A program made the position numbers and the translations under genes. From a virus (lineage: Duplodnaviria > Caudoviricetes), in the IMG/VR virus record IMGVR_UViG_3300012532_000003, positions 1 through 55,648 of that record: a DNA stretch of 55,648 nt. One strand, given 5' to 3'. Below the pieces are notes generated by a model that saw only the letters and a program-made list of their open reading frames with translations, was not told the origin of the DNA and made no database searches. The first letter of the stretch is position 1; each line of letters begins with the position of its first letter. Below, piece by piece: positions 3,045 through 55,648 of this stretch.

Positions 3045-4649
3045 GTGTCAAATCCATACACGAGATTTCTAAGCACACCAGTTCCGCAGAGTGAACAAGA
3101 AGACCCACGCCAGGTAGCAAACAGCGCCGGTGGGTTCTCTTTTGTGATCGATGACAAAGCGAGACTGGAACGGTTCCTGATTCTTGGCACAGACGGCGGA
3201 ACATATTATATTAACGAGCGAGACCTCACGAAGCAGAACGTTGATTTCCTAGTTGACCTCATCAAGCGCAACGGAGAGCTAGTCCTTGAGACAGCTCATG
3301 ACATCTCCGTTGAGGGCCGTGCTTACCGTAACTCCGCAGCCATTTTTGTCATGGCCTTGCTTTTCAGGTATGCTTCTGACGAGGTAAAGTCCAAGGCAAA
3401 GGCTCTTTTTCCCAAGATTGTTCGCACATCTACTCATCTGTTCGAGTTCGCCAAATACATCGAGCTGATGGGTGGCTGGGGACGCGCGAAGCGTTCCGTC
3501 GTGGCGAGCTGGTACCTGAGCAAGACACCGGACAAGCTGGCTTACCAGGCGGTAAAGTACCGTCAGCGCGATGGCTGGACACACCGTGACCTGTTCCGGC
3601 TTTCACACCCAAAGGGTGTCAACCAGGAACTCGGCAACTTCATTCTCGGAAAAGAAGTTGGTCCTGGCGGTTTTCCAGGTATCATTTGTGGTTTTGCTAA
3701 TGCTCAGGCTTCGGAAAACGTTTATGACCTGATCCAAATCCTTAATGATTACCCTAACTTGCCTTGGGAAGCACTGCCAACTCAGTTCCATAAGGAACCA
3801 GATGTATGGCGAAAGCTTTTCTACAATGGCCAGATCACTGGTCAGGCGCTTGTGCGTAATATTACTCGTCTCGCTCGCATTGCTGCTTTTGATGACATGG
3901 TTTTCACTGCTGACTATGCTAGTAAGCTTGTTGACGAGGAAATGATCGCGCGTACACGCTTACACCCAACTAACTACCTAAACGCGCTCGTGGTTCACGA
4001 GGAAGGGCAGATAGCTCGCAATCGCTCCACATGGTGTTCTGGTAGTCGAGAGAGGAGCTGGACGACCGTACCAGCCATCAGAGACGCGCTCAACGAAGGG
4101 TTCCACCTGGCATTCAAGCACGTTGAACCAGCCAACAAGCGCACACTGTTGGCACTTGATGTGTCAGGATCAATGTCTTACCCCGCGATAGGCATTGACC
4201 TGTCGGCTGATCAGGTTGGCGCGGCAATGGCCATGACCGTGGCTCGGACCGAGCCGTACTACACCGTTATGGGGTTCTCGACAGAGTTCAAGGACCTGGG
4301 AATCTCGCCTGGTCAAAGCCTGAGCCAGGTACTCCAAAAAACCACCAATATGAACTTTGGCGGCACGGACTGCTCGTTGCCCATGGTTTGGGCGCATCGT
4401 AAAAGGATAGAAGTCGACACGTTCCTGGTCATTACGGACAATGAAACGTGGGCCGGAAGCATACACCCACACGTGGCACTCCGAAACTATCGACAGGCAA
4501 TGGGCATTGACGCACGGTTGGTTGTCGCTGGGGTGGCATCGAATGGTTTCACAATAGCTGACCCAACCGATGCGGGAATGCTCGATGTTGTGGGCTTTGA
4601 CTCTAACGTACCAAAGGTAATAGCCGATTTTTCGGCCGGAAGATTTTAA
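3045..4649 (+). CDS. rsr: Ro60/TROVE-domain RNA-binding protein (Rsr) with vWA domain
   Basis: QVANSAGGFSF, RFLILGTDGGTYY, GWGRAKR, AYQAVKYRQRDGWTHRDLFRLSHP, LALDVSGSM (MIDAS), GGTDCSLPM, ITDNETW, MLDVVGFD. Confidence 0.97.
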   Translation: MSNPYTRFLSTPVPQSEQEDPRQVANSAGGFSFVIDDKARLERFLILGTDGGTYYINERDLTKQNVDFLVDLIKRNGELVLETAHDISVEGRAYRNSAAIFVMALLFRYASDEVKSKAKALFPKIVRTSTHLFEFAKYIELMGGWGRAKRSVVASWYLSKTPDKLAYQAVKYRQRDGWTHRDLFRLSHPKGVNQELGNFILGKEVGPGGFPGIICGFANAQASENVYDLIQILNDYPNLPWEALPTQFHKEPDVWRKLFYNGQITGQALVRNITRLARIAAFDDMVFTADYASKLVDEEMIARTRLHPTNYLNALVVHEEGQIARNRSTWCSGSRERSWTTVPAIRDALNEGFHLAFKHVEPANKRTLLALDVSGSMSYPAIGIDLSADQVGAAMAMTVARTEPYYTVMGFSTEFKDLGISPGQSLSQVLQKTTNMNFGGTDCSLPMVWAHRKRIEVDTFLVITDNETWAGSIHPHVALRNYRQAMGIDARLVVAGVASNGFTIADPTDAGMLDVVGFDSNVPKVIADFSAGRF

Positions 4650-43042: not shown

Positions 43043-43285
43043 TAATGCTCCTTGATAATCACGTCGTATGTCTTAGTAACGTCAAATGGAGCACCAACAG
43101 GTGACGAAACTATAACGCTTATTGAAACGTCATCATGTGGTGAAGATGTTCCTCCTACGTTAAGCGCTGCACTCCAACCATTACTGCCAAAGCGCTGCAC
43201 TCCAACCATTACTGCCAAAGTGCTGTACTGACATACTAGAAACCAACATGTTAGATTTATCGTATACCACGTCTCCGCTTGCCAT
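43042..43285 (-). pseudogene. 71-aa gene frameshifted by a 28-bp tandem duplication
   Basis: TAATG coupling at both ends; 244-28=216 nt restores MASGDVVYDK...FDVTKTYDVIIKEH. Confidence 0.8.
43162..43217. repeat. Perfect 28-bp tandem repeat x2
   Basis: AAGCGCTGCACTCCAACCATTACTGCCA twice, followed by the imperfect AAGTGCTGTACT. Confidence 0.95.
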
Positions 43286-44244
43286 TACAAGACGGCCGCC
43301 TTAATCAGGTATCCAGCGATCGACTTGCTAGTAGAACCAAGCGCGGTAAGCTTCAAGTCGTAGTACCGGCAAACTCGAACAACGTCGGACTTACGCTTCT
43401 CTTCCCGCCAACGGTCTACAGTCTGCTGGCCCCAAGTGAACTCGTATCCATAGGCTGGAATCTTCAGGCCAGGAGCGCCAGGAACGTAAGCCATGACAAC
43501 ATCCTTACCCCACAGGTAACCAAGCGATGGGGTTTGACCAAGGTTCGCGGTGTTAACGCCAACACCAGGGACAATCACACGCTGGAAGCCAAGGATCGCA
43601 GCAAGCAGCTCAGGGGAGAAAATTGCCCGCTCAGAGTACTTAATGCGCTCCAGGAAGTCCGGGTGGTCTTCCAGCTTTGCCATGACCTGGTAAGGAATAA
43701 CCAGAACGTTTGGCTCAAGGAACAAGCCGGAGTGAATCTTAGACTTTCCAGTCCGGAGGTCGGAAATCGGGTCCGAGTTGGCGTAGTCACTCCACTGTGC
43801 AGTACCAGAAAGAGTCGTAGAGTAGCCGGACTCATAGTTCACAGTAGCAGTTGCTAGGGTCTGCATGGCACGTTCTCGGCCAAGCATGATCTTCGAAGTA
43901 ACGAGGTTCGTGCCATCACGGTCTGGGTTCAGAGGAGAGTCCGCGTTTTCGCGCTCCTCATCGGTGACCGCAATCTGCAACGAGTGCTCTTGTGCATAGT
44001 ATGTGTCCGTGGACACAGTAAGACCAGTGACCTCGTTCGCCTCAGTACCAGGCGCCCGGAAGTCGTCTTCAGGCAGCCAGCCCTCGCGACCGAACACATA
44101 GTATCTATCGGACTGCTTCCGAACCGTCACAGACGGGAAAAGCGCAGCACCGGCAAGACCAAGTGTTGGCCAACCTACACTAATCTGGGTGAGAACCTGG
44201 TCAACGTGGACATTGCTGCTACCAGACGATGCGTAAACAGGCAT
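43285..44244 (-). CDS. Major capsid protein (phage cap E-like)
   Basis: HVDQVLTQISVG, LFP.V.V.K, RAPG, WSD...SDPI.D, PAYGYEF. Confidence 0.92.
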   Translation of the reverse strand: MPVYASSGSSNVHVDQVLTQISVGWPTLGLAGAALFPSVTVRKQSDRYYVFGREGWLPEDDFRAPGTEANEVTGLTVSTDTYYAQEHSLQIAVTDEERENADSPLNPDRDGTNLVTSKIMLGRERAMQTLATATVNYESGYSTTLSGTAQWSDYANSDPISDLRTGKSKIHSGLFLEPNVLVIPYQVMAKLEDHPDFLERIKYSERAIFSPELLAAILGFQRVIVPGVGVNTANLGQTPSLGYLWGKDVVMAYVPGAPGLKIPAYGYEFTWGQQTVDRWREEKRKSDVVRVCRYYDLKLTALGSTSKSIAGYLIKAAVL

Positions 44245-44660
44245 TATGCCACCATACCAGGAGTCAGAAGGATGTCGACAATGTCGCCGTCGGCCAATGT
44301 TCCACCAAAACCGACGACAATACCAACAACAAAGTTAGTAGAAGTGGCCAGCAGAACGCCGCCACCAGTACCAGCCATCACCTTGGAACCTATGACTAAG
44401 CTTGCCGCTGTAGTAACAAAGACCTTGGTAATGCCCAGCATCCGTACGTCAGCAACAACCTTGCCTGTGGCAACCTTTGCTGCATCTACGGCCTCTTGAA
44501 CCACACCGAGCGAGAGTGTGGCTGCGGTTGCATTCAGGTCAATGGTCTGACCGGTCGCAGTCTTCACACAACGGTAAGGTGTGACACCTGCCGCAGCGGA
44601 GCTGTTGTAGGTCGAAAGGACCTTATACCCTTTATCAAGTACATAACTAGCGCCTGCCAT
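44244..44660 (-). CDS. Capsid cement/decoration protein (DUF2190-like)
   Basis: Between protease and capsid genes; GVVQEA, DGDIVDILL. Confidence 0.8.
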   Translation of the reverse strand: MAGASYVLDKGYKVLSTYNSSAAAGVTPYRCVKTATGQTIDLNATAATLSLGVVQEAVDAAKVATGKVVADVRMLGITKVFVTTAASLVIGSKVMAGTGGGVLLATSTNFVVGIVVGFGGTLADGDIVDILLTPGMVA

Positions 44661-44679: not shown

Positions 44680-45849
44680 TTAGTCCCGGAATGAGAACGC
44701 TTCTTGCCGGTAGCCATTGTAAAGCTCCGGGTTCTGGCTTGCCGCAATGGACATGGCTTCGGTCAACGCAATCTTCTTCTCATCGGCAATGCGCTGAGAC
44801 TCACTCATGAACAACTGCTTGCTGTCCTTTGACCGTCCATAGCGAACGTTGGCTCCCGCCCGCTCCCCGATCTCTACCATGAAGCTGGTGCTGTTCCGCA
44901 TGAGGTTCAACAGCTCCCAGAACTGTTCCGAAAGCTCCACAGGGATGTCGAGCAGAAGGTCGTGAACCAGGTCCTTTGCCCGAGGCGTGAGTATGATCTT
45001 CGAAGTGTCAAACTCAGCCAGCTTACGGCTCACATCTGCCTCGCGCAGTGAGACCTGGAAATCGTTGAGGGCCTTTTCCTGTGCGTCAACAGTCTCAATG
45101 AGCGTCTTTACCATCGGGTTTTCCTCAGCGAGCTTCTTCAGCTCTGTGCTGAGATCCACTTTTGGAACGGTAGGGGGAGCTTTTGGCGGTGCTGGCGGGG
45201 CTGGCGGAGCCTTCAACGTTTCCGCCAACTTTGCAAAAGCTGCCTCTTCAGTGGTACCCTCCGGAAGACCAAGAAGCTCAGTAAGCTTCTTCAAATCCAC
45301 ATCTTCCTCCTTATGGGTCTGCTTCGCTCGGTTGATCGCATCAACCAGTTCAAACGCCTGATGTATGGAGTTTTCGGAGAGGTTAATTGGCAGCAAATTC
45401 TTCATGTAAGGCCGATTTGTCAGCGCTCCACCAAACAGCACGTCGCTGAACGACTTGCCCGCCGGGTCCGCCCACTTCTCTCGGAACTCCGCGGAAATGT
45501 ACCGCCACTTCTTTTCCTTGATGTCCTGAGCCGCGCTCTTTACCCACTCAACGAGTGCCCACAGGCCGTCGTGGCGAGCCTCGGCATCCTTAATCCAACC
45601 GGCGGCTTCTCCGTCACCACTGACCTTGTCACCGTGCATGAGGTTAATGCTTGGGTCGATGCCCCGCACCCGCTTTTTGACATTTTCCGCGAAATTTTTA
45701 ATTCGCTCGGAAGTCATGGAGAGCTTGCCATAAACCGGGTGCGTGTACTCACCTATCGGGAGCAGATGAATCCACGACTTTGGGACGTCCTCGCTTTCGT
45801 TGAGCTGAACGTTAGCCAGCTCGATGAGGTACAGGATGTCTTTCTCCAA
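44680..45849 (-). CDS. Mu gpI-like prohead protease/scaffold
   Basis: WIHLLP.G...HP.YG, AAGWI, VEW...A...I....RYISAEF, ALTNRPY. Confidence 0.92.
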   Translation of the reverse strand: MEKDILYLIELANVQLNESEDVPKSWIHLLPIGEYTHPVYGKLSMTSERIKNFAENVKKRVRGIDPSINLMHGDKVSGDGEAAGWIKDAEARHDGLWALVEWVKSAAQDIKEKKWRYISAEFREKWADPAGKSFSDVLFGGALTNRPYMKNLLPINLSENSIHQAFELVDAINRAKQTHKEEDVDLKKLTELLGLPEGTTEEAAFAKLAETLKAPPAPPAPPKAPPTVPKVDLSTELKKLAEENPMVKTLIETVDAQEKALNDFQVSLREADVSRKLAEFDTSKIILTPRAKDLVHDLLLDIPVELSEQFWELLNLMRNSTSFMVEIGERAGANVRYGRSKDSKQLFMSESQRIADEKKIALTEAMSIAASQNPELYNGYRQEAFSFRD

Positions 45850-45852
45850 TTT

Positions 45853-46188
45853 TCACTTCCCTCCCTTCGCTGGCTTCTTTTTCTTCCCAATGTTGGGATA
45901 CCGTCGAGCCACTGCGGCCCGAACTCTTCTCTTCTCCTCTGGAGTGCCATGTTGGGCAACTCTGGCCAAAGCATTCCTAGCATGGGCCTCGTCGTGAATC
46001 GGATAAGCTCTGTCTCCTGGAATGGCAAACTGTGTTTTTGCCAACCGTTTGCGAGCCCGGTACGACAATTCGGACATCATGGCAGGATCTACTTTTACCC
46101 GATCATAACCGACCTTTTGATCCTTGGCAACTGCACGGCGTTGTCTTACACTTGATGTTGACAAGCTCTGGCGTCGACTCATCGTCAC
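45853..46188 (-). CDS. Small basic head-region protein
   Basis: FAIPGDRAYPIHDEAHARNALARV motif. Confidence 0.8.
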   Translation of the reverse strand: MTMSRRQSLSTSSVRQRRAVAKDQKVGYDRVKVDPAMMSELSYRARKRLAKTQFAIPGDRAYPIHDEAHARNALARVAQHGTPEEKRRVRAAVARRYPNIGKKKKPAKGGK

Positions 46189-46433
46189 CGTTGAACACCT
46201 CCTATTTCCGTCGGAAAGTTTGGGTAATATACGGAGGTAAAGCTTGGATAAGCAGCCGCCGTGCTAGTTGTTGCCGGGCTGCCGTATACTGGCGCAACAA
46301 ATGGTGGTTTGATCAGTGACCGAAGAGCCTGAGACAACGACATCTTGTTAAACTTTGCCATCTGTTCCAGTACCTGACGCTCGTCTTTGGTAAGCCGAAC
46401 CGACACAATGCTGTCTCTGCTCACCTTACTCAT
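46185..46433 (-). CDS. Ribbon-helix-helix protein
   Basis: IVSVRLTKDERQVLEQMAK...SLSQALRSLI. Confidence 0.7.
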   Translation of the reverse strand: MSKVSRDSIVSVRLTKDERQVLEQMAKFNKMSLSQALRSLIKPPFVAPVYGSPATTSTAAAYPSFTSVYYPNFPTEIGGVQR

Positions 46434-48961
46434 TACTTTCCTCCAGAGGTGTCGAGTCCAGCGTTTGACTGTGGAAGCTTCACGTTCAGCTTCGGGGCCT
46501 GTTTTGGTAGACCAACTTTTGGTGGCATTGGGGTACCAGGCGTATTGGTTTGACCTTGTTGTTGGGTTGCCGGCATTCGTACCGAGGTTTTGTCCACAGG
46601 AGGGAGGTCCAGCTCACTTCGCAGGAAGTCTTCGAGTTCGTCGTCCGGCCGAATGGCGCCTGCACCAACAAAGTTCCGGAACGCGAACGACATGGTGCGA
46701 ATGTCCTCTTGCTCACCAATCCGACGAACGCGAAGTTTTGGATAGCCGCCCCGCGAAAAGTTAAAGTCAACAAGCTTCGGAATCACAAAATGATTGAACG
46801 TGTCACACACTGTGGTGGCAATGTAGCGCGTTGACTTGTAGTACACGTCCAACGAGTCCGGGTTTACGTTTGCTTCGTCCATGAAGGGAGCCAAAATATT
46901 CGACTTGATTTTCATGTCATGATGTTCAATCGACGGAATGCAGTTGACCGGTTGACCCTCAAGCTTGGCAAATAAAATTTCCCAAGTAGACGGAGCCACG
47001 ATGTGAGCGCGTTCGTTTGTTCTTAAGTTTCTTCCAAGATCCTCAGCGGTGTTCTTGTCCTTCGTTGAGTATCCAGGAGGCAGCTTAATCATCGGCACGC
47101 CAATGCCATGTCGCTCTTTCTGGATTGAATTACCAGTGTAATAAACAGATTCTTTTCGTCTAGCTAGCCAGTTGCCATTACTTGTTGATACACACCAAAC
47201 GGTTCCTTGATACTGTTCTTTAGTTATAGTCATTCCATTGGCATAACCCAACCGCTTCGACTGGTTTTCTGCATATTTAGGACTATATGTATGTTTGCGT
47301 AGAAGCTGGAGGCGCCAATGTGGGCCACCAGTAGAAATGCTACCGTAGTCATAATATCTAATACTTGTTGGAATACCTAGAAGTGCACATGCTAACTCAA
47401 TAGAGAAAAGTCTTTCTTTAATCTCTTGTGCAATATAAGGTTCATGTCCAGCAGTTGGTCGATAGCCATCACCAGAGATACATGTTTGCACAAACAAATT
47501 GAGCTGGGCCTTGGTGAGGCGAAGTATAAAATCTGGGTCTACTACCTTATAACCAATAAATGCTTCGGCAAATTCAAGACTTAGCAACCTACTGAGTCGA
47601 AACTGAGTAATATCAGGGCGGGAGTCATTAATGTTTTCTGTCCACCATTTTGTTCCGAATCGATCTTTCCTTGTGAGTTTCGAAACTGGAGAAATGGAAG
47701 ACAAAGAATTTCTAACTTGCTGAACCTTTTTTTCATTTACTAAATTCGATTGCTCGATATAAATCATTCCATTATGATTTGTACCATCTGCCCACATCCA
47801 AGCGACAAGCTCAACAAAGGTATCGGTGTACTTTTGTTCAGTTGGGAAACTGGAAACCTCTGCTGATTTAGGTACTTGGTCAAGATATGACAGCGTTTCC
47901 GTAGTTTTCCATACCCAATCGCCAGATCTTTTGTTTTTTACAAACCAACGGTGATCAGGCGTAGTCATAGCTGAAAATACACGACTTTCCATCTTTATCA
48001 TGTTGTGTGTGCCATTGGCCTTGTGAATAGCTTCAATTTCATTCCATTCACTTAGACCTGTAGATGTGTTAATTGTTAGCGTTTCATCTCCAATCTCTAT
48101 TTTGTCGTAGTGTTTCCAGCCCTTTTTGGTAAAGATTTCAGTTTCTTCATCTACACAGTCGATCTTGTAAAGCGTGTCCTTGTAGTAATGGTGCTTGTAG
48201 CAAGACCGAAGAATGGAAGTGCCTCGTAGGTCTCCACCTTCCTGCTCAAGCACAAAGATGACCAACTTCTCGATCGGAATGCTCACTGACCCATCAAAGG
48301 CCACCCCTTGGAACACCGAAGTACCATAAGAAGTGGAGTATTGCCCATACGGCTGCTCCATGACGATGCCACGAGGACCGCCGTGTTCGTCCCACTGCCA
48401 CTCCTTAACATCCATCGGGTGCCGAGGAGCTAGCTTCTGGAGCTTAAGCTTGTCACCATCAATCTTAAAGACAAGCTCAAAAGGAAAGTATCCGAAGTCG
48501 CACATGAGCAGGGCGTCCTCGACAATCCTGCTCCATGGCAGGTTAAGCTCGTGGAAAAGGTTCCTCTCCACGAACTCGGCAATATTTTTGTCGATTACGG
48601 AGTCCGACGCCGGTTCCACGAACCATCGAGCGGCCAGAATGGGAGTCTTCAACAGCCGAAGAGCGCCACGAATCGTTCCATCGGATCGCTTCATGTCGTA
48701 ATAGGTCCGAAGGCCAGCTTTGTCTCTAAGCTCCGGTACCCGTTCGTCGCGAATCCAGGAGGTCCAGGGCGAGGGTGAAGAGTAACCAAGCTCGGCAATG
48801 GCGATATCGCCTGACATGCCAGGGTCGCGCTCTGACATAATCATGAACGAGCCGTGCGCCGGGTCGTAGTTTGCCCCCACAACCTGATAGCGTTGCAGCG
48901 CTTCGGCAAAAGAGATCTGCCGAGCCTCGGCATACTCCTCAAGCTCTTCAATGGCTCCCAC
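46433..48961 (-). CDS. Portal protein (Mu gp29/DUF935-like) with intein
   Basis: Y..M..SDG.I...L..LK.PI, FG...FE.V, G.SILR.CY, ERHGIGVP. Confidence 0.92.
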   Translation of the reverse strand: MGAIEELEEYAEARQISFAEALQRYQVVGANYDPAHGSFMIMSERDPGMSGDIAIAELGYSSPSPWTSWIRDERVPELRDKAGLRTYYDMKRSDGTIRGALRLLKTPILAARWFVEPASDSVIDKNIAEFVERNLFHELNLPWSRIVEDALLMCDFGYFPFELVFKIDGDKLKLQKLAPRHPMDVKEWQWDEHGGPRGIVMEQPYGQYSTSYGTSVFQGVAFDGSVSIPIEKLVIFVLEQEGGDLRGTSILRSCYKHHYYKDTLYKIDCVDEETEIFTKKGWKHYDKIEIGDETLTINTSTGLSEWNEIEAIHKANGTHNMIKMESRVFSAMTTPDHRWFVKNKRSGDWVWKTTETLSYLDQVPKSAEVSSFPTEQKYTDTFVELVAWMWADGTNHNGMIYIEQSNLVNEKKVQQVRNSLSSISPVSKLTRKDRFGTKWWTENINDSRPDITQFRLSRLLSLEFAEAFIGYKVVDPDFILRLTKAQLNLFVQTCISGDGYRPTAGHEPYIAQEIKERLFSIELACALLGIPTSIRYYDYGSISTGGPHWRLQLLRKHTYSPKYAENQSKRLGYANGMTITKEQYQGTVWCVSTSNGNWLARRKESVYYTGNSIQKERHGIGVPMIKLPPGYSTKDKNTAEDLGRNLRTNERAHIVAPSTWEILFAKLEGQPVNCIPSIEHHDMKIKSNILAPFMDEANVNPDSLDVYYKSTRYIATTVCDTFNHFVIPKLVDFNFSRGGYPKLRVRRIGEQEDIRTMSFAFRNFVGAGAIRPDDELEDFLRSELDLPPVDKTSVRMPATQQQGQTNTPGTPMPPKVGLPKQAPKLNVKLPQSNAGLDTSGGK
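47129..48157 (-). mobile_element. Intein (343 aa) with LAGLIDADG-like domain in portal
   Basis: YKID|CVDEETEIFT...TPDHRW...VWCV.T.NGNWLARR...YTGN|S. Confidence 0.92.
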
Positions 48962-49541: not shown

Positions 49542-49642
49542 GTGTTGTTCCATGCTTTCCAGGCCAAATAGTAAGCCCAAATGGTAACACCAACAAACAC
49601 CAAGCAACCGCCGCAGCCGGCCGCTAACAAGTATTTTGTCAT
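49538..49642 (-). CDS. 34-aa membrane peptide
   Basis: ATGA coupling at both ends; MTKYLLAAGCGGCLVFVGVTIWAYYLAWKAWNNT. Confidence 0.6.
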   Translation of the reverse strand: MTKYLLAAGCGGCLVFVGVTIWAYYLAWKAWNNT

Positions 49643-52174
49643 GAAAACCGCTTGCCTGTGGTAAAGTACCCACTGCTTGGAATATCACTGAATGACCGTG
49701 AGTCGATGATGTCGGACAAACTTTGAGTTGCGCCGAGCTTAAACACGTGCATCATTCCATACCGCAGCGCGTCAAGTGCGTGGTCATCGAACTTCTGAGC
49801 ATCTTCCCGTGGGTTTCGCTCTCTGCCTCGTGGCGGTTCGGCACTTCGGTAGTTGTTGAACTCGCGAATGATGTTGGTACAGCCATGATCAACAATTAGC
49901 CACGGCTCCTCTATTGGGGTTCCGTACTCGTCCTGATCTACTTCCTGGGACTTCAAGAACCCTTTAACAAGCTCAACGCCTTCGCGCCAGTTCGACTTTG
50001 CCATCGGATCTGCGTAACATGGGGAAAAATCCTCAGAAACCGACATTACAGCTTCCGGGTCGGCAGCATCTCCAAAGCAAAGGTCAATCTTGTAACCAGG
50101 TGGCTGCTCGCGAGACGCCATCTCGCCCAGGAAGTCTTTGAGCCTCATCCTTGTTTTGTAATGTTCCCGCCAAACCCGAACGCGCTGCATGGTGTCCACC
50201 TGGAACTCCACAGCGGCCATCGGTGCGACGAAGCCCCAGTCAAAGCTGATGTAGTTTGGAAGTAAAGGGTTGTACTCGATTTTTTGTACGTGTTCCTGTT
50301 CGTTCCATTCACTGTAAATTTTCCCGGAAAAACTAGTAAAGTCGGCACCAATCTCCTGCATGAACCAGTCGCTTGGCATGGTCCGTTCGAGAAGCAGTAT
50401 CTCTGGGTCGTTTCGTCCGTGTCTATACAAGTGAGGGTTTTCCCAGCTTGGAAACTGCCAGCTCGCATAATCGGGGTAGCTTGGGTCACGTCCGTACTGC
50501 CACAGGGCGTGCAGCCAGTTCATTCCCTCCGGGGTCGAGGTCATAATGGCATTACCGAGCACATCTGTCAGCGCCGGGCGAATAAACCGTTCCCAAGTTT
50601 CCTTGGTGTGCTTGGCAGATTCGCTCATAATCACGTAGTCGAGACGCTCGCCGACAAGGTTCTCCGGACGATCCGCGCTTCGTACCTCAAGCCTGGTCCG
50701 CCACGGAAACTCAATGCTTAGGTCACCTTGCTTTTTTGCATAGCTACGCCGGACCTCACGCTCACGTCCGAGACCAAGCTTTATAATCATGTCGTTCCAA
50801 ATAACCCGGAACTCTTTCTCACCAAGTTCAATCGTAGGTATTGCCTGTGTAGTGGACAGAACCACCACGCCGTGCAAGCCAGTTCCCATTGCGAGTCGTG
50901 ACACACCAGACAGTACCTACATATTGCTCACCCCCGATCTTCATCCCGTTTGGTCCAGCTACGTGAGTGGCTCGCACAGGATTAACAAAATCTTTGGTGA
51001 GAAGTCCTAGAACCCAGCCATTTTTGCCATCTTTAGTTCGAAGTCTTGTGCTTGTTGGGATACCAAGCAATTGGCACGCTAGTTGAACCGCAAAAAGTTG
51101 CTCTTCGTTTTCTTGATAAATTATCTTTTGGTTAGACTCATATCCATCCTTTAATTGATATCCAACAGTTCTATCGCCCAAAACAGACACGTCAACAAAC
51201 AGTCGAAGCTGAGACATTGTCAACGAACGAATAAAGTTAGGATCAATAAGCTTGTGATGTTCGATCTTGGCCATGTGAAATACTTCTTCAAACTTTTTAC
51301 TTAAAATTTTACCGATGTAAAAAACAGTCTTATCTGGATCTGACTCGGAAATGCGTTCTGACCAAAAAGCTGTTCCAGGCTGAATCGAACTGTGGCTTAA
51401 AATAGGATCTGGACATAGCTCCAATAATGCGCGCCTTATCCTGGCAACGTTTGTTTCGTTAACTACGTGTGATTGGTGAATCGTCAACGCACCCTTGGTT
51501 CCCGATTTTGATCCATCGGTCCATAACCAAGCAACGAGTTCCACAAAAGCATCCGAGTATTTTGGTTCTGTTGGAAACGTAGAGCATGGTGCAGCACGTG
51601 GAATTCTGTCATCTGCCGTTAATGTACTTGTAGTGCGCCAAGTCCAACCATTACTAGTTTTTGGAAGCAAATGCTCAATCGGCTTAAGAGCTTTTGGTAG
51701 CTTGGATCCTTGCTGTCTATAACCAATCCCAACACGTCGCTTTGTCAACCATCTGTGGTCTGGCGTCGATATCGAAGAAAACGAAGGTCCTTCCATCCGA
51801 ACAACATCATGAATACCTGGACTACAAAGGACCTTTTCTACAACATCCCATTCTGTTAATCCTGTAATTGGGTTAATGGAAAGTGTTTCGTCACCCACCA
51901 AAACCTCGTTATACCTCAACCAACCACGTTGAGTCAAAATCTCAGTTTCTTCATCTACACACGGGCCGACGATCCAGACCCGCTTGTTGGGCATCATGAG
52001 GATCGGCTCAACTTCCCGAGCACCCATGAGGGTCTTACCGGCACGGCGCCCCGCTACCGCAACCTTGAACCGCGCGGTGCTTTGATGGAACTCCCGCTGC
52101 TTTCGATATGGTTTGTACTCAATGAGGTCAAAGTACTTCCACTTATCTACCTTGTAGACTTTATCGAGCCTCAT
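49639..52174 (-). CDS. terL: Terminase large subunit with intein, split by a frameshift at ~50830
   Basis: N part: Q..FH, AGRRAGKT, WIVGP|TYD then stop; C part in another frame: LGEKEFR, L.GE.LD, STPEG.NW, DWGF, DDHALDALRY. Confidence 0.9.
50840..51961 (-). mobile_element. Intein (374 aa) in terminase, paralogous to the portal intein
   Basis: IVGP|CVDEETEILT...TPDHRW...VWCVTTRNGNWLARR...YTGN|T. Confidence 0.92.
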
Positions 52175-52706
52175 GGGCCTTCCCTAGCCTTTGGAGAAAC
52201 TCGAACACTTCTCTGTTCCACTGCGCGTCGGCTAGGGCGTGGTGTTCCACTGAGTCTTGTTTCGGAAGTGTAGGGCTGCCAAGCCGGTCGCATTCTTGTT
52301 TCAGGTCGTTGGTGTACATGGGAAGCCCTTTAGGCAGGTCGTTCATAGGTCCAAACAACCAGGCGTACGCGACATGGTCAAAGGATCCGTACCAGGCCCA
52401 AAGCTCTGGGTTTTGGTCGTAAAGTAGAAAGTCTCGAACTTCGTTGGCGATTACAAAGTGCGGTTTCACCACGGGATCTTCCGCATTAACCTGCCATAGT
52501 GGCAACTCGACCACATCGACATACTGTTTACTTGGTAACCATGGAGCTACGTTCTGCATTAACCAGGTGTTACTTTTTATCCGTTCCCATGGAGCGCTTG
52601 AGTTTACGGCATAGTACTCCCTGTCGTCCTCGGCAACGATCCCAATTGAAATAAGCTCAATGGTTTTGCCATCTTCAAGAAACTCGGTGTCGTAGAAGTA
52701 TCTCAC
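52161..52706 (-). CDS. DEDDh 3'-5' exoribonuclease (Rv2179c-like)
   Basis: YFYDTEFLEDG.TIELISIG, ELWAWY..FDHV, HHALADA.W. Confidence 0.9.
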   Translation of the reverse strand: MRYFYDTEFLEDGKTIELISIGIVAEDDREYYAVNSSAPWERIKSNTWLMQNVAPWLPSKQYVDVVELPLWQVNAEDPVVKPHFVIANEVRDFLLYDQNPELWAWYGSFDHVAYAWLFGPMNDLPKGLPMYTNDLKQECDRLGSPTLPKQDSVEHHALADAQWNREVFEFLQRLGKAHEAR

Positions 52707-53105: not shown

Positions 53106-53450
53106 TTATCCGGCAAGACGATCGAGATAAATTGCAATGGAAGATGTCTGGGCAGTGACCGCTGCTCCAACAACTGTAATCACATCATCCGAGTTTACCG
53201 GTATTGGCGTTGTCGGTATGTATACACCAACGCTTGGGGTCCCAGACGTGGTAATGCTGTTCAACAGAACGTTGTAACCAGATCCAAGCCCTGAGGTAAG
53301 GGTTACAGTGGCCGACCCAGCAGTACCACCCGAGTAGGTCACCGTCACCATGCGCAACCTTCCGGCTTTGCCCGAAGTGGTCGCTAGTGTATTTGTTGCG
53401 TTGGTACCGGAGGTCTGGTTGAACCTGGCACAGCCGTAGTAGTCACTCAC
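53106..53450 (-). CDS. Thr/Ser/Gly-rich putative virion protein
   Basis: GGAGG RBS, GTG start; beta-rich composition. Confidence 0.7.
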   Translation of the reverse strand: MSDYYGCARFNQTSGTNATNTLATTSGKAGRLRMVTVTYSGGTAGSATVTLTSGLGSGYNVLLNSITTSGTPSVGVYIPTTPIPVNSDDVITVVGAAVTAQTSSIAIYLDRLAG

Positions 53451-53599
53451 TAGTACCCTCCGGAAGCCTTCTTCGTGGCTTTCTTGGCTGTCTTCTTTAC
53501 AACTTTCTTCGTCTTACCCTGCGGAAACCCAACGCTCACCTTTTTTGACATCTTGTCAGGATGAACGTTTCCGCTTCCGGATGGACTATATACAGCCAC
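53450..53599 (-). CDS. 49-aa protein: capsid N-terminus look-alike plus histone-like basic tail
   Basis: MAVYSPSGSGNVHPDKMSKKVSVGFPQGKTKKVVKKTAKKATKKASGGY; SD-like AAGGTGA/GGTGG, TAGTG coupling. Confidence 0.75.
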   Translation of the reverse strand: MAVYSPSGSGNVHPDKMSKKVSVGFPQGKTKKVVKKTAKKATKKASGGY

Positions 53600-53689
53600 T
53601 ATCCCACCATCACCTTACGTTGATCTCTTCAGCAACCCTTAAGTACTTGATTTTCATTTAACGACTTGCTGCCATACTGTTAATTTCTA

Positions 53690-53857
53690 TTAATGACTTG
53701 CTGCCATACTGTTGATCAATGCCAGCAGTGGCACTGCGACCCACAGGGCGAGGCCAAGAGCGACCATGTTAATTCGAGGGCTCAGCGTGCCGCCGAACGC
53801 CGCAGCCAGGAAGCACAAAAACGCGGCTATAAGCAGAATGAGCGTGAGAATCTGCAT
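53690..53857 (-). CDS. 55-aa two-TM membrane protein
   Basis: AAAGG RBS; MQILTLILLIAAFLCFLAAAFG...RINMVALGLALWV. Confidence 0.75.
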   Translation of the reverse strand: MQILTLILLIAAFLCFLAAAFGGTLSPRINMVALGLALWVAVPLLALINSMAASH

Positions 53858-53896: not shown

Positions 53897-54046
53897 TTAC
53901 TTAGCCCTTTTTAGTTTCTTCTTACGACTTTTTCCTGCTGTTTGCATTGAAATGGCAACTGCCTGCTTTTGTGGGTACCCTTCCTTAACCAACTTTGAGA
54001 TGTTCTCGCCGACCGTCTTCTTCGAAGATCCCCTTTTCAACGGCAT
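53897..54046 (-). CDS. 49-aa basic conserved-type phage protein
   Basis: GAGGT RBS; [40 protein letters not shown]. Confidence 0.8.
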
Positions 54047-54077
54047 GTCACTACCTCTCAGCAACCCTTAACGTTTA

Positions 54078-54590
54078 CTACCTGTGTTGGTACACACCGG
54101 TCTGCTTCATGGTTGTAGCTTTTAAGACTGGGTTGAGCACGTGTGGGCTTTGGTGTGGGAGCCGAATAGCAATACGACCATCGGCAGTAGGCAAAGCACC
54201 AGCCGGCGTCACCGAGCCTGTGTCAAGAAACGTCGTTGTCGGCATGTTCACCGTTCCCATCAACAGCTCGGAACCGCCGGTACGTCCATATACCTTATGA
54301 GCAGTAGCAGCAGGGACCGCAGTGGCAGTCCAGTCAACGGTCACCGTCGAGGTGGCTCCGGTTGTTACTTGGGTTTTTGCGGTAGAGGCGGTTGTCTCAA
54401 TACCATCCACCACAGCGGAGACACGGTAGGAGTACGTTGCCGCAGCCAAGGTTCCGCCGGTTGTAGCAGTCGAGGACGCTGGCTGTGCGGGAGCGCCAAG
54501 CTGCACGCCAACTACGAGAGCTGTGACCGACTCGCCACTAGCGTTACGATACCGAACTGTATCGTTCTTGTTTGCTACCCTAAGTGGCAT
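54078..54590 (-). CDS. Putative virion protein with FN3-like insert
   Basis: GGAGGT RBS; TATTGGTLAAATYSYRVSAV...ETTAS...VTV.W, homologous to the tail tube insert. Confidence 0.8.
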   Translation of the reverse strand: MPLRVANKNDTVRYRNASGESVTALVVGVQLGAPAQPASSTATTGGTLAAATYSYRVSAVVDGIETTASTAKTQVTTGATSTVTVDWTATAVPAATAHKVYGRTGGSELLMGTVNMPTTTFLDTGSVTPAGALPTADGRIAIRLPHQSPHVLNPVLKATTMKQTGVYQHR

Positions 54591-55502: not shown

Positions 55503-55525
55503 CCAATTTACCAATCCCGTCCCTG

Positions 55526-55648
55526 TTAAGCCAATTTACCAATTTATCAAGATCAACTTCTTTCTCATACCTATTAAGCCAATTTACCAATTTATCAAGA
55601 TCAACTTCTTTCTCATACCTATTAAGCCAATTTACCAATTTATCAAGA
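55526..55648. repeat. 48-bp AT-rich tandem repeat, at least 2.5 copies, running off the window
   Basis: TTAAGCCAATTTACCAATTTATCAAGATCAACTTCTTTCTCATACCTA at 55526, 55574, 55622; partial copy at 55501. Confidence 0.95.

Follow-up and report, generated by a model that had tools for sequence, protein, structure and literature searches.

The DNA analysed here, called the window throughout, is a single IMG/VR virus record of 55,648 bases with an estimated completeness of 73%, and the sequencing runs that contain it consist of soil metagenome DNA only. A small basic protein gene with homologues in related phages occupies positions 53450 to 53599 on the minus strand. It encodes 49 amino acids, starts with a GTG that is the sole start codon downstream of the preceding in-frame stop, and ends with a stop codon at 53450 to 53452. 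The product can be divided into an N-terminal module resembling the N-arm of the major capsid protein (codons 1 to 26, positions 53522 to 53599, minus strand) and a K/A-rich polycationic tail (codons 27 to 49, positions 53453 to 53521, minus strand). With 12 lysines, one aspartate, and neither arginine nor glutamate, the protein has a net charge of +11 and a pI of 10.4. The gene for a protein of 114 residues follows at 53106 to 53450 (minus strand). Its GTG overlaps the stop codon of the small gene by one base (TAGTG), which suggests translational coupling, and the last codons of the small gene, specifying G-G-Y, double as its Shine-Dalgarno sequence; because of this double use, G-G-Y was rejected as a C-terminal protein motif. 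A scan for promoters and terminators around the small gene gave none above shuffled sequences. The same or a near-identical protein is present in a large protein collection and in the ESM Atlas, and some gene caller must thus have called this ORF already. The homologue search of that collection with the 49-residue protein recovered only the protein itself among five candidates, while the ESM Atlas search gave a top score of 0.86 and clusters without names. Judged by its sequence, the ORF is a real gene. Just upstream of it lies an exact 19-base direct repeat (53663 to 53681 and 53695 to 53713, minus strand, 32 bases apart), which overlaps the 3' end of an ORF for a membrane protein of 55 residues (53690 to 53857); there is no further copy in the window, and 0.02 such repeats are expected by chance.

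The neighbouring and head genes considered here are likewise located on the minus strand. Upstream of the small gene are the genes for a basic protein of 55 residues without capsid-like motif (phrog_2423; 53897 to 54064) and for a protein of 170 residues (54078 to 54590), the latter taken as synteny anchor, upstream of the small gene, in relatives. The portal protein (Portal_Mu) is encoded at 46433 to 48961 and a prohead protease with a C-terminal scaffold-like half (Mu gpI-like, PF10123) at 44680 to 45849. The slot between these two holds the gene for a basic protein of 111 residues (45853 to 46188) that matches phrog_16160 and, below the cut-off, DUF6582. Between protease/scaffold and capsid lies a gene for 138 residues (44244 to 44660) that is conserved in relatives and has no family match. 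The major capsid protein of 319 residues is encoded at 43285 to 44244. Its identity follows from matches to phrog_1005 (E = 6.7e-77) and to PDB entry 3BJQ, a Bordetella prophage capsid protein (E = 5.7e-24), and from an AF2 model with a mean pLDDT of 76, for which Foldseek retrieved 3BJQ, the capsid proteins of lambda, HK97, and P23-45, other capsids of the HK97 fold, and encapsulins.

An earlier note on this DNA, made from the letters alone, had described a gapless match between the starts of the small protein and of the capsid protein, with 14 of 26 residues identical, and the alignment bears this out. Residues 1 to 26 of the two proteins share 14 identities and 20 positives without a gap (BLASTP, single comparison, E = 6e-8). 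When the window was scanned in six frames with residues 2 to 26, the capsid start scored 71 and the runner-up place 25. The matching capsid codons 1 to 26 are located at 44167 to 44244 (minus strand). In the AF2 model of the capsid protein, residues 1 to 10 have pLDDT values below 50, residues 11 to 30 reach about 56 to 65 with a short helix at residues 16 to 21, and the E-loop strands (46 to 93) and the spine helix (107 to 132) come afterwards. Since residues 1 to 26 precede both the E-loop and the spine helix, the copied part is the capsid N-arm, as the note had proposed. An alignment of 57 related capsids revealed M1, G8, D15, L18, and S22 to be invariant and Y4, P6, H13, T19, I21, and P26 to be nearly so, and the core of the N-arm is also found in the distant capsid of Roseobacter phage RDJL Phi 1, with an overall identity of about 31%.

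At the DNA level, the shared 78 bases agree at 43 positions, with 15, 21, and 7 matches out of 26 at the first, second, and third codon positions, respectively. As third positions are at chance level, neither a recent DNA duplication nor ongoing gene conversion accounts for the likeness, and the N-terminus of the small protein is, on this evidence, best described as an old copy selected at the peptide level. A stretch of 11 bases immediately upstream is alike for the two starts, which we take as a similar ribosome-binding region. Despite this upstream likeness, a role of the shared segment in translation initiation was discarded, because third codon positions are not conserved.

To place the small gene among related phages, several searches were combined. 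The cultured phages gave no match, either by blastn with the region or by tblastn with a family member of 149 residues, and capsid relatives among isolates are only about 30% identical. IMG/VR contained closer relatives, namely 80 capsid loci at 58 to 81% identity and 80 loci that were found with an alignment of the 170-residue neighbour gene; the corresponding search with the single protein of 170 residues found nothing. The search with the small protein itself returned 14 loci, all of which were capsid starts and none small genes. A motif HMM was built from an alignment of capsids and small proteins, of which residues 1 to 17 were used, and run over all stop-to-stop frames of 174 loci and the window. 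Of its 1431 hits, 162 reached at least 15 bits and none fell into the range from 10 to 15 bits; every hit at or above 15 bits was either a capsid start or a second copy. Collapsing loci that share a capsid 5' end left 96 distinct capsid starts; 30 distinct phages had full coverage, i.e., anchor gene, terL, portal, protease, and capsid within the locus. A second, non-capsid copy of the motif was present in 14 of the 30 fully covered phages and in 17 of the 96 at any coverage; among the 14 carrier rows, two (L127 and L129/L059) have the same small protein, and neither a degenerate copy in L057 nor L149, whose capsid lies in another locus, was counted. Together with 32 database proteins described below, these copies confirm that the similarity is conserved in relatives; the note had named its vanishing there as a refutation. 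The remaining 16 of the 30, including L022 with a capsid 75% identical, have no second copy in the syntenic slot, and the gene is thus dispensable. For RDJL Phi 1, the one cultured relative scanned, the 37.7 kb covered, a part of its genome, contained no second copy (best score 27, capsid 127).

Two observations concern the same slot in other loci. In L057, positions 3930 to 4190 encode a cationic protein of 86 residues that retains the C-terminal features of the family but the N-terminal motif only in degenerate form; it may be a decaying or diverged family member. A gene for about 105 residues that follows the small-protein slot in four loci (L026, 3400 to 3717; L027, 3930 to 4262; L031, 2336 to 2653; L028, 3828 to 4148) starts with M-A/P-V/G-Y; this resembles the first four capsid residues, a likeness too short to call.

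Across 16 aligned small proteins, the motif stands at the very N-terminus of sequences of 35 to 179 residues that begin with ATG, GTG, or TTG. Y4, G8, and G10 are nearly invariant and position 13 is mostly histidine; most members continue via D15 to '...ISGG', which aligns to the capsid '...ISVG' after a short deletion, while the window copy retains the full 26 residues. Past the motif, length and sequence diverge strongly and composition is kept: all 16 proteins are cationic, with net charges of +8 to +31 and pI values of 10.2 to 12.0. The protein-collection search with the member of 179 residues yielded 56 proteins of 98 to 230 residues, of which 32 show the motif somewhere in residues 1 to 60 and are just as cationic. 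Taken together, the 48 motif-bearing proteins (16 aligned and 32 from the database) have 18 to 26% K+R, net charges of +8 to +36, and pI values of 10.2 to 12.0. Among the remaining database proteins, several correspond to the same proteins with the start placed further downstream, and others have different N-termini and just an internal, helical-looking module in common. A conserved module of about 45 residues, running from 'GMGF...' to '...ANPNLKKV', was noted in P0043, P0048 to P0059, and the small proteins of L073, L141, L168, and L169. It is present in the longer motif-bearing proteins, occurs also in unrelated small proteins with other N-termini, and belongs to no Pfam or PHROG family.

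The tail had been called H1/HupB-like in the note, a label that stands for the K/A-rich composition and falls for family membership. Specifically, Pfam and PHROGs contain no significant family for the window protein or nine relatives, and no DNA-binding domain was recognised by either in the family members searched. No HU (PF00216) or H1 domain matched in the window protein or the relatives examined, and the best HC2 (PF07382) match among relatives reached E = 0.32 and 11.5 bits, as compared to a cut-off of 40. One database member bears the automatic JGI name 'DNA-binding protein HU-beta'.

Most members overlap the next structural gene by stop and start codon, the recurrent C-terminal G-G-Y corresponding to the Shine-Dalgarno sequence of that gene, and the usual position of the gene is between the 170-residue anchor gene and terL. 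In four loci (L151, L163, L168, and L169), a motif-bearing basic gene lies directly between portal and protease/scaffold, i.e., in the slot that holds the 111-residue protein in the window. The late-gene setting proposed in the note is thereby corroborated, with the gene sitting in late structural operons. These data also bear on the idea that the ORF has no function and either remained from a partial duplication of the start of the capsid gene or arose by chance. Shortness, the GTG start, and the lack of a family match would agree with such an origin; the protein-level conservation despite diverged third codon positions, and the recurrence, with composition and position kept, across many distinct contigs and in 32 database proteins, make it improbable in the extreme.

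The motif is not confined to capsids and small basic proteins. The protease/scaffold of the window itself lacks it, and in four relatives (L103, L109, L111, and L126) the Mu-like prohead protease/scaffold begins with a capsid-like motif, which is followed by a Cys/His-containing stretch of about 45 residues and then by the ordinary protease start. A search with the first 80 residues of a tagged protease retrieved 16 clusters with an N-terminal motif (P0061 to P0076, 443 to 468 residues, all PF10123), one cluster without motif (P0077), and one unrelated match. Some of the tagged clusters have the long capsid-like form of the motif, and in others it is shortened to '...ISGG' as in the small proteins. 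A protease domain is present in motif-bearing proteins of 433 to 468 residues from relatives and absent from the 49-residue protein. Within the available coverage, a tagged protease and a tagged small protein never occur together in one locus. Because the motif opens capsid, small proteins, and protease/scaffold alike, the capsid N-arm motif is, as far as these sequences tell, a portable N-terminal module that has moved among capsid, polycation, and protease/scaffold; its occurrence on the protease/scaffold is what a head-targeting peptide would predict. In the tagged proteases (L103, 3943 to 5277; L109, 482 to 1849; L111, motif at about 3876; L126, 1179 to 2546; P0061 to P0076), the N-terminal extension comprises about 73 residues. 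Its Cys/His-containing stretch matches phrog_3684 weakly (E = 2e-4) and is followed by '...EGGKMGE', which may contain an internal ribosome-binding site and ATG, a start site that would allow nested long and short forms of the protease.

The distribution of carriers was mapped onto a quick maximum-likelihood tree of the 57 capsids (midpoint root), in which 35 rows have an unknown state through coverage. All carriers of small proteins and of fusions fall within one group of 33 rows (SH-aLRT 94), and the two fusion lineages are sisters (SH-aLRT 99). Carriers are interleaved with fully covered non-carriers, and well-supported branches force at least four gains or losses; on this quick tree, the carrier label is not significantly clustered, an equally low value being obtained in 114 of 500 shuffles. 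The note had suggested co-variation with the cognate capsid as a check, and this was examined for 17 pairs of N-termini of 18 residues (small or fused) and their own capsids. The summed score was 998, as compared to 951 ± 17.6 after shuffling, and was reached by 0.6% of shuffles; the 12 pairs without indels gave 833 versus 798 ± 11.5 (0.2% of shuffles). The sums thus exceed those of the shuffled pairings, an excess that is confounded by relatedness: the co-variation is weak, since both sequences are common to related phages. In most individual phages, a capsid other than the cognate one matches best, and the small protein of the window ranks only 16th of 17 against its own capsid, as here the capsid drifted from the consensus and the small protein did not. 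Both motif copies seem to be held to one consensus and not to track each other, and one shared consensus fits a shared, conserved partner.

Such a partner is central to the reading we favour, in which the capsid N-arm module is a head-targeting tag and, by way of the partner that the N-arm has, would deliver a polycationic tail or the protease into the procapsid; we consider it a serious possibility, just short of probable. It builds on the homology, conservation, modularity, gene context, and N-arm location of the motif, all demonstrated above. According to this proposal, other head proteins would have acquired a copy of the first 15 to 26 or so capsid residues, serving as a portable N-terminal tag, which in this phage and about a dozen relatives opens a small, presumably disordered, strongly cationic K/A-rich protein, and in another branch opens the prohead protease/scaffold, a protein that must be inside the procapsid. 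The tag would bind whatever the capsid N-arm binds in the procapsid and in this way incorporate its protein into the interior of the particle. Once the scaffold has left, the basic tail would remain associated with the packaged DNA, with the protein acting as a charge-neutralising internal head protein. Structural work on other phages provides candidate partners. The C-terminus of the 80alpha scaffold binds the N-arm helix of the capsid protein, where SaPI1 CpmB competes for the site (PMC5644958), and in SPP1 the scaffold gp11 binds the N-terminal helix of the capsid protein in the procapsid, the N-arm extending upon maturation and pairing antiparallel with that of a neighbouring capsomer (PMC6813328). 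In JBD30, the N-arms form interacting hooks (PMC11445458). A complex prediction with capsid, protease/scaffold, and small protein (score 0.00, run without controls) weighs neither for nor against binding. Counting against the proposal are the absence of the gene from 16 of the 30 fully covered relatives, the unclustered distribution on the quick tree, the weak co-variation, and the fact that the searches recovered neither a cultured carrier nor a recognised DNA-binding domain. In addition, the protease/scaffold already has a scaffold half that should suffice for targeting, so that a second tag is not obviously needed.

The main rival to such a docking tag, although the two readings are not mutually exclusive, is that the shared N-terminus is mainly a processing signal, which the Mu-like prohead protease would recognise and remove from the capsid, from itself, and from the small protein; the likeness would then stem from substrate recognition and not from docking. 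There is precedent for one protease with this range: T4 gp21 trims gp23, gp24, internal proteins, and itself. The carriers of the motif found here, namely capsid, protease/scaffold, and a small basic protein, belong to the types of protein that prohead proteases classically act on, and the likeness of the small proteins to the capsid ends at a fixed point ('ISGG') just ahead of the basic tail. The T4 targeting peptide, moreover, is described on internal proteins (PMC3012670). Against this explanation, conservation of the capsid N-terminus runs on without a break into the protein body in the 57 capsids, the distant RDJL Phi 1 capsid retains its core, and the window capsid aligns from residue 8 onwards to the crystallised 3BJQ protein. 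In JBD30, whose capsid is not detectably similar in sequence, N-arm residues 6 to 25 persist in the mature capsid (PMC11445458), and no cleavage site is derivable from the present sequences. On balance, processing as the main function of the segment appears unlikely.

A third reading takes up the competition for the N-arm seen in 80alpha. A free copy of the N-arm could occupy the site of the capsid arm on the scaffold or on a neighbouring subunit and thereby slow, time, or resize assembly, the basic tail being secondary. It draws on the same mimicry evidence (BLASTP match, family alignment, and motif HMM) and on the precedent of SaPI1 CpmB versus the 80alpha scaffold (PMC5644958), and the dispensable, patchily distributed gene is as expected of an accessory modulator. 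Competition would leave unexplained both the uniformly strong cationic cargo and the fusion of the motif to a protease/scaffold that has to enter the procapsid, and the gene is the phage's own and not that of a satellite; we regard it as distinctly unlikely. The mimicry could also be directed at the host. Defence systems that sense capsid proteins exist, and a protein displaying the capsid N-terminus might titrate or block such a sensor. Neither the location in late structural operons with translational coupling nor the protease/scaffold fusion and the uniformly cationic tails fit such a decoy, and no link to a defence system came to light, which renders it highly improbable.

Seen from the head-targeting proposal, the closest known counterparts are found in T4 and P1. 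The internal proteins of T4 are basic and travel with the DNA, and IPI to IPIII resemble the small protein described here in being small cargo. Neither they nor P1 DarB show a sequence relation to it, as judged by the absence of PHROG or Pfam matches for the window protein and nine relatives, and T4 internal-protein cargo is a folded anti-restriction protein, whereas the cargo here is a low-complexity polycation. The CTS of IPI to IPIII is a short N-terminal peptide common to diverse head-internal proteins that directs them into the scaffolding core, and both T4 and P1 use N-terminal capsid-targeting peptides to carry cargo into heads (PMC3012670, PMC9024508). In the phages studied here, too, a short N-terminal peptide is found on several head proteins of one lineage; unlike the T4 CTS, it is a copy of the capsid protein's own N-arm. 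For P1 DarB, the N-terminal 30 residues suffice to send a reporter into the capsid, the cargo is an enzyme of 250 kDa, and the portion of the report available mentions no resemblance between signal and capsid (PMC9024508). The 80alpha scaffold, SaPI1 CpmB, and SPP1 gp11 share with the present case that the N-arm is a docking surface of the procapsid for which competing ligands are possible (PMC5644958, PMC6813328). These proteins bind the N-arm, however, whereas the small protein imitates it and would take the place of the capsid on the partner.

With regard to the tail, H1-like, HC2, and HU-tail polycations are likewise K/A-rich, strongly cationic, and probably disordered; the likeness, predicted from sequence, is one of composition and not of family membership. 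The adenovirus core proteins VII and mu are comparable polycations. Encapsulins, which appear among the Foldseek matches of the window capsid, load cargo by a short terminal peptide that docks inside an HK97-fold shell; they are cellular compartments with different peptide motifs, and their peptides are not copies of the terminus of the shell protein. A literature search, mostly at the title and abstract level, found no description of a small protein that copies a capsid N-arm. New here is the tag copied from the N-arm of the shell protein itself, its modularity across three protein classes, and the unannotated family.

In a more far-reaching form of the proposal, which we consider doubtful at present, the N-arm would be a self-derived address label: any protein starting with it would enter the procapsid by replacing an arm on the scaffold or in the antiparallel arm-to-arm contact. 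The clade would thereby load a protamine-like polycation (tens to hundreds of copies, each with a charge of +8 to +36) that neutralises packaged DNA, as well as its maturation protease. N-terminal capsid-targeting peptides are known from few model phages such as T4 and P1, and their recognition is poorly understood. Because the tag is recognisable as a copy of the shell N-arm, it points to its likely binding partner and opens the mechanism to direct testing. The family of about 50 proteins has no Pfam or PHROGs annotation. The presence of one module on capsid, polycation, and maturation protease suggests a general route by which phages recruit additional proteins to the head interior. Should the basic tails indeed lie on the DNA, they would represent a protamine-like packaging aid in a tailed phage; if the address-label form holds, the shell protein would have given rise to a compact and transferable tag for capsid loading. 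The 26-residue tag could also serve as a loading signal for engineered capsids.

Three further features of the window were recorded. Its large terminase gene (49639 to 52174, minus strand) is split across two overlapping ORFs in different frames. In ORF 50828 to 52174, only residues 13 to 71 match phrog_2, followed by about 375 unmatched residues, and ORF 49639 to 50904 holds the remainder of phrog_2. In relatives, terL comprises 471 to 508 residues, or 813 to 819 residues in one ORF (L016 and L031), which suggests an intein or homing-endonuclease-type insertion, in the window possibly combined with a frame change. Between terL and the small-gene cluster, inside the late operon, positions 52161 to 52706 (minus strand) encode a 3'-5' exoribonuclease Rv2179c-like/RNase H-like protein (PF16473, E = 4e-9; phrog_2259, E = 1e-54). 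Finally, a 48-base tandem repeat at 55522 to 55648 (2.6 copies, 98% match) runs off the end of the record.
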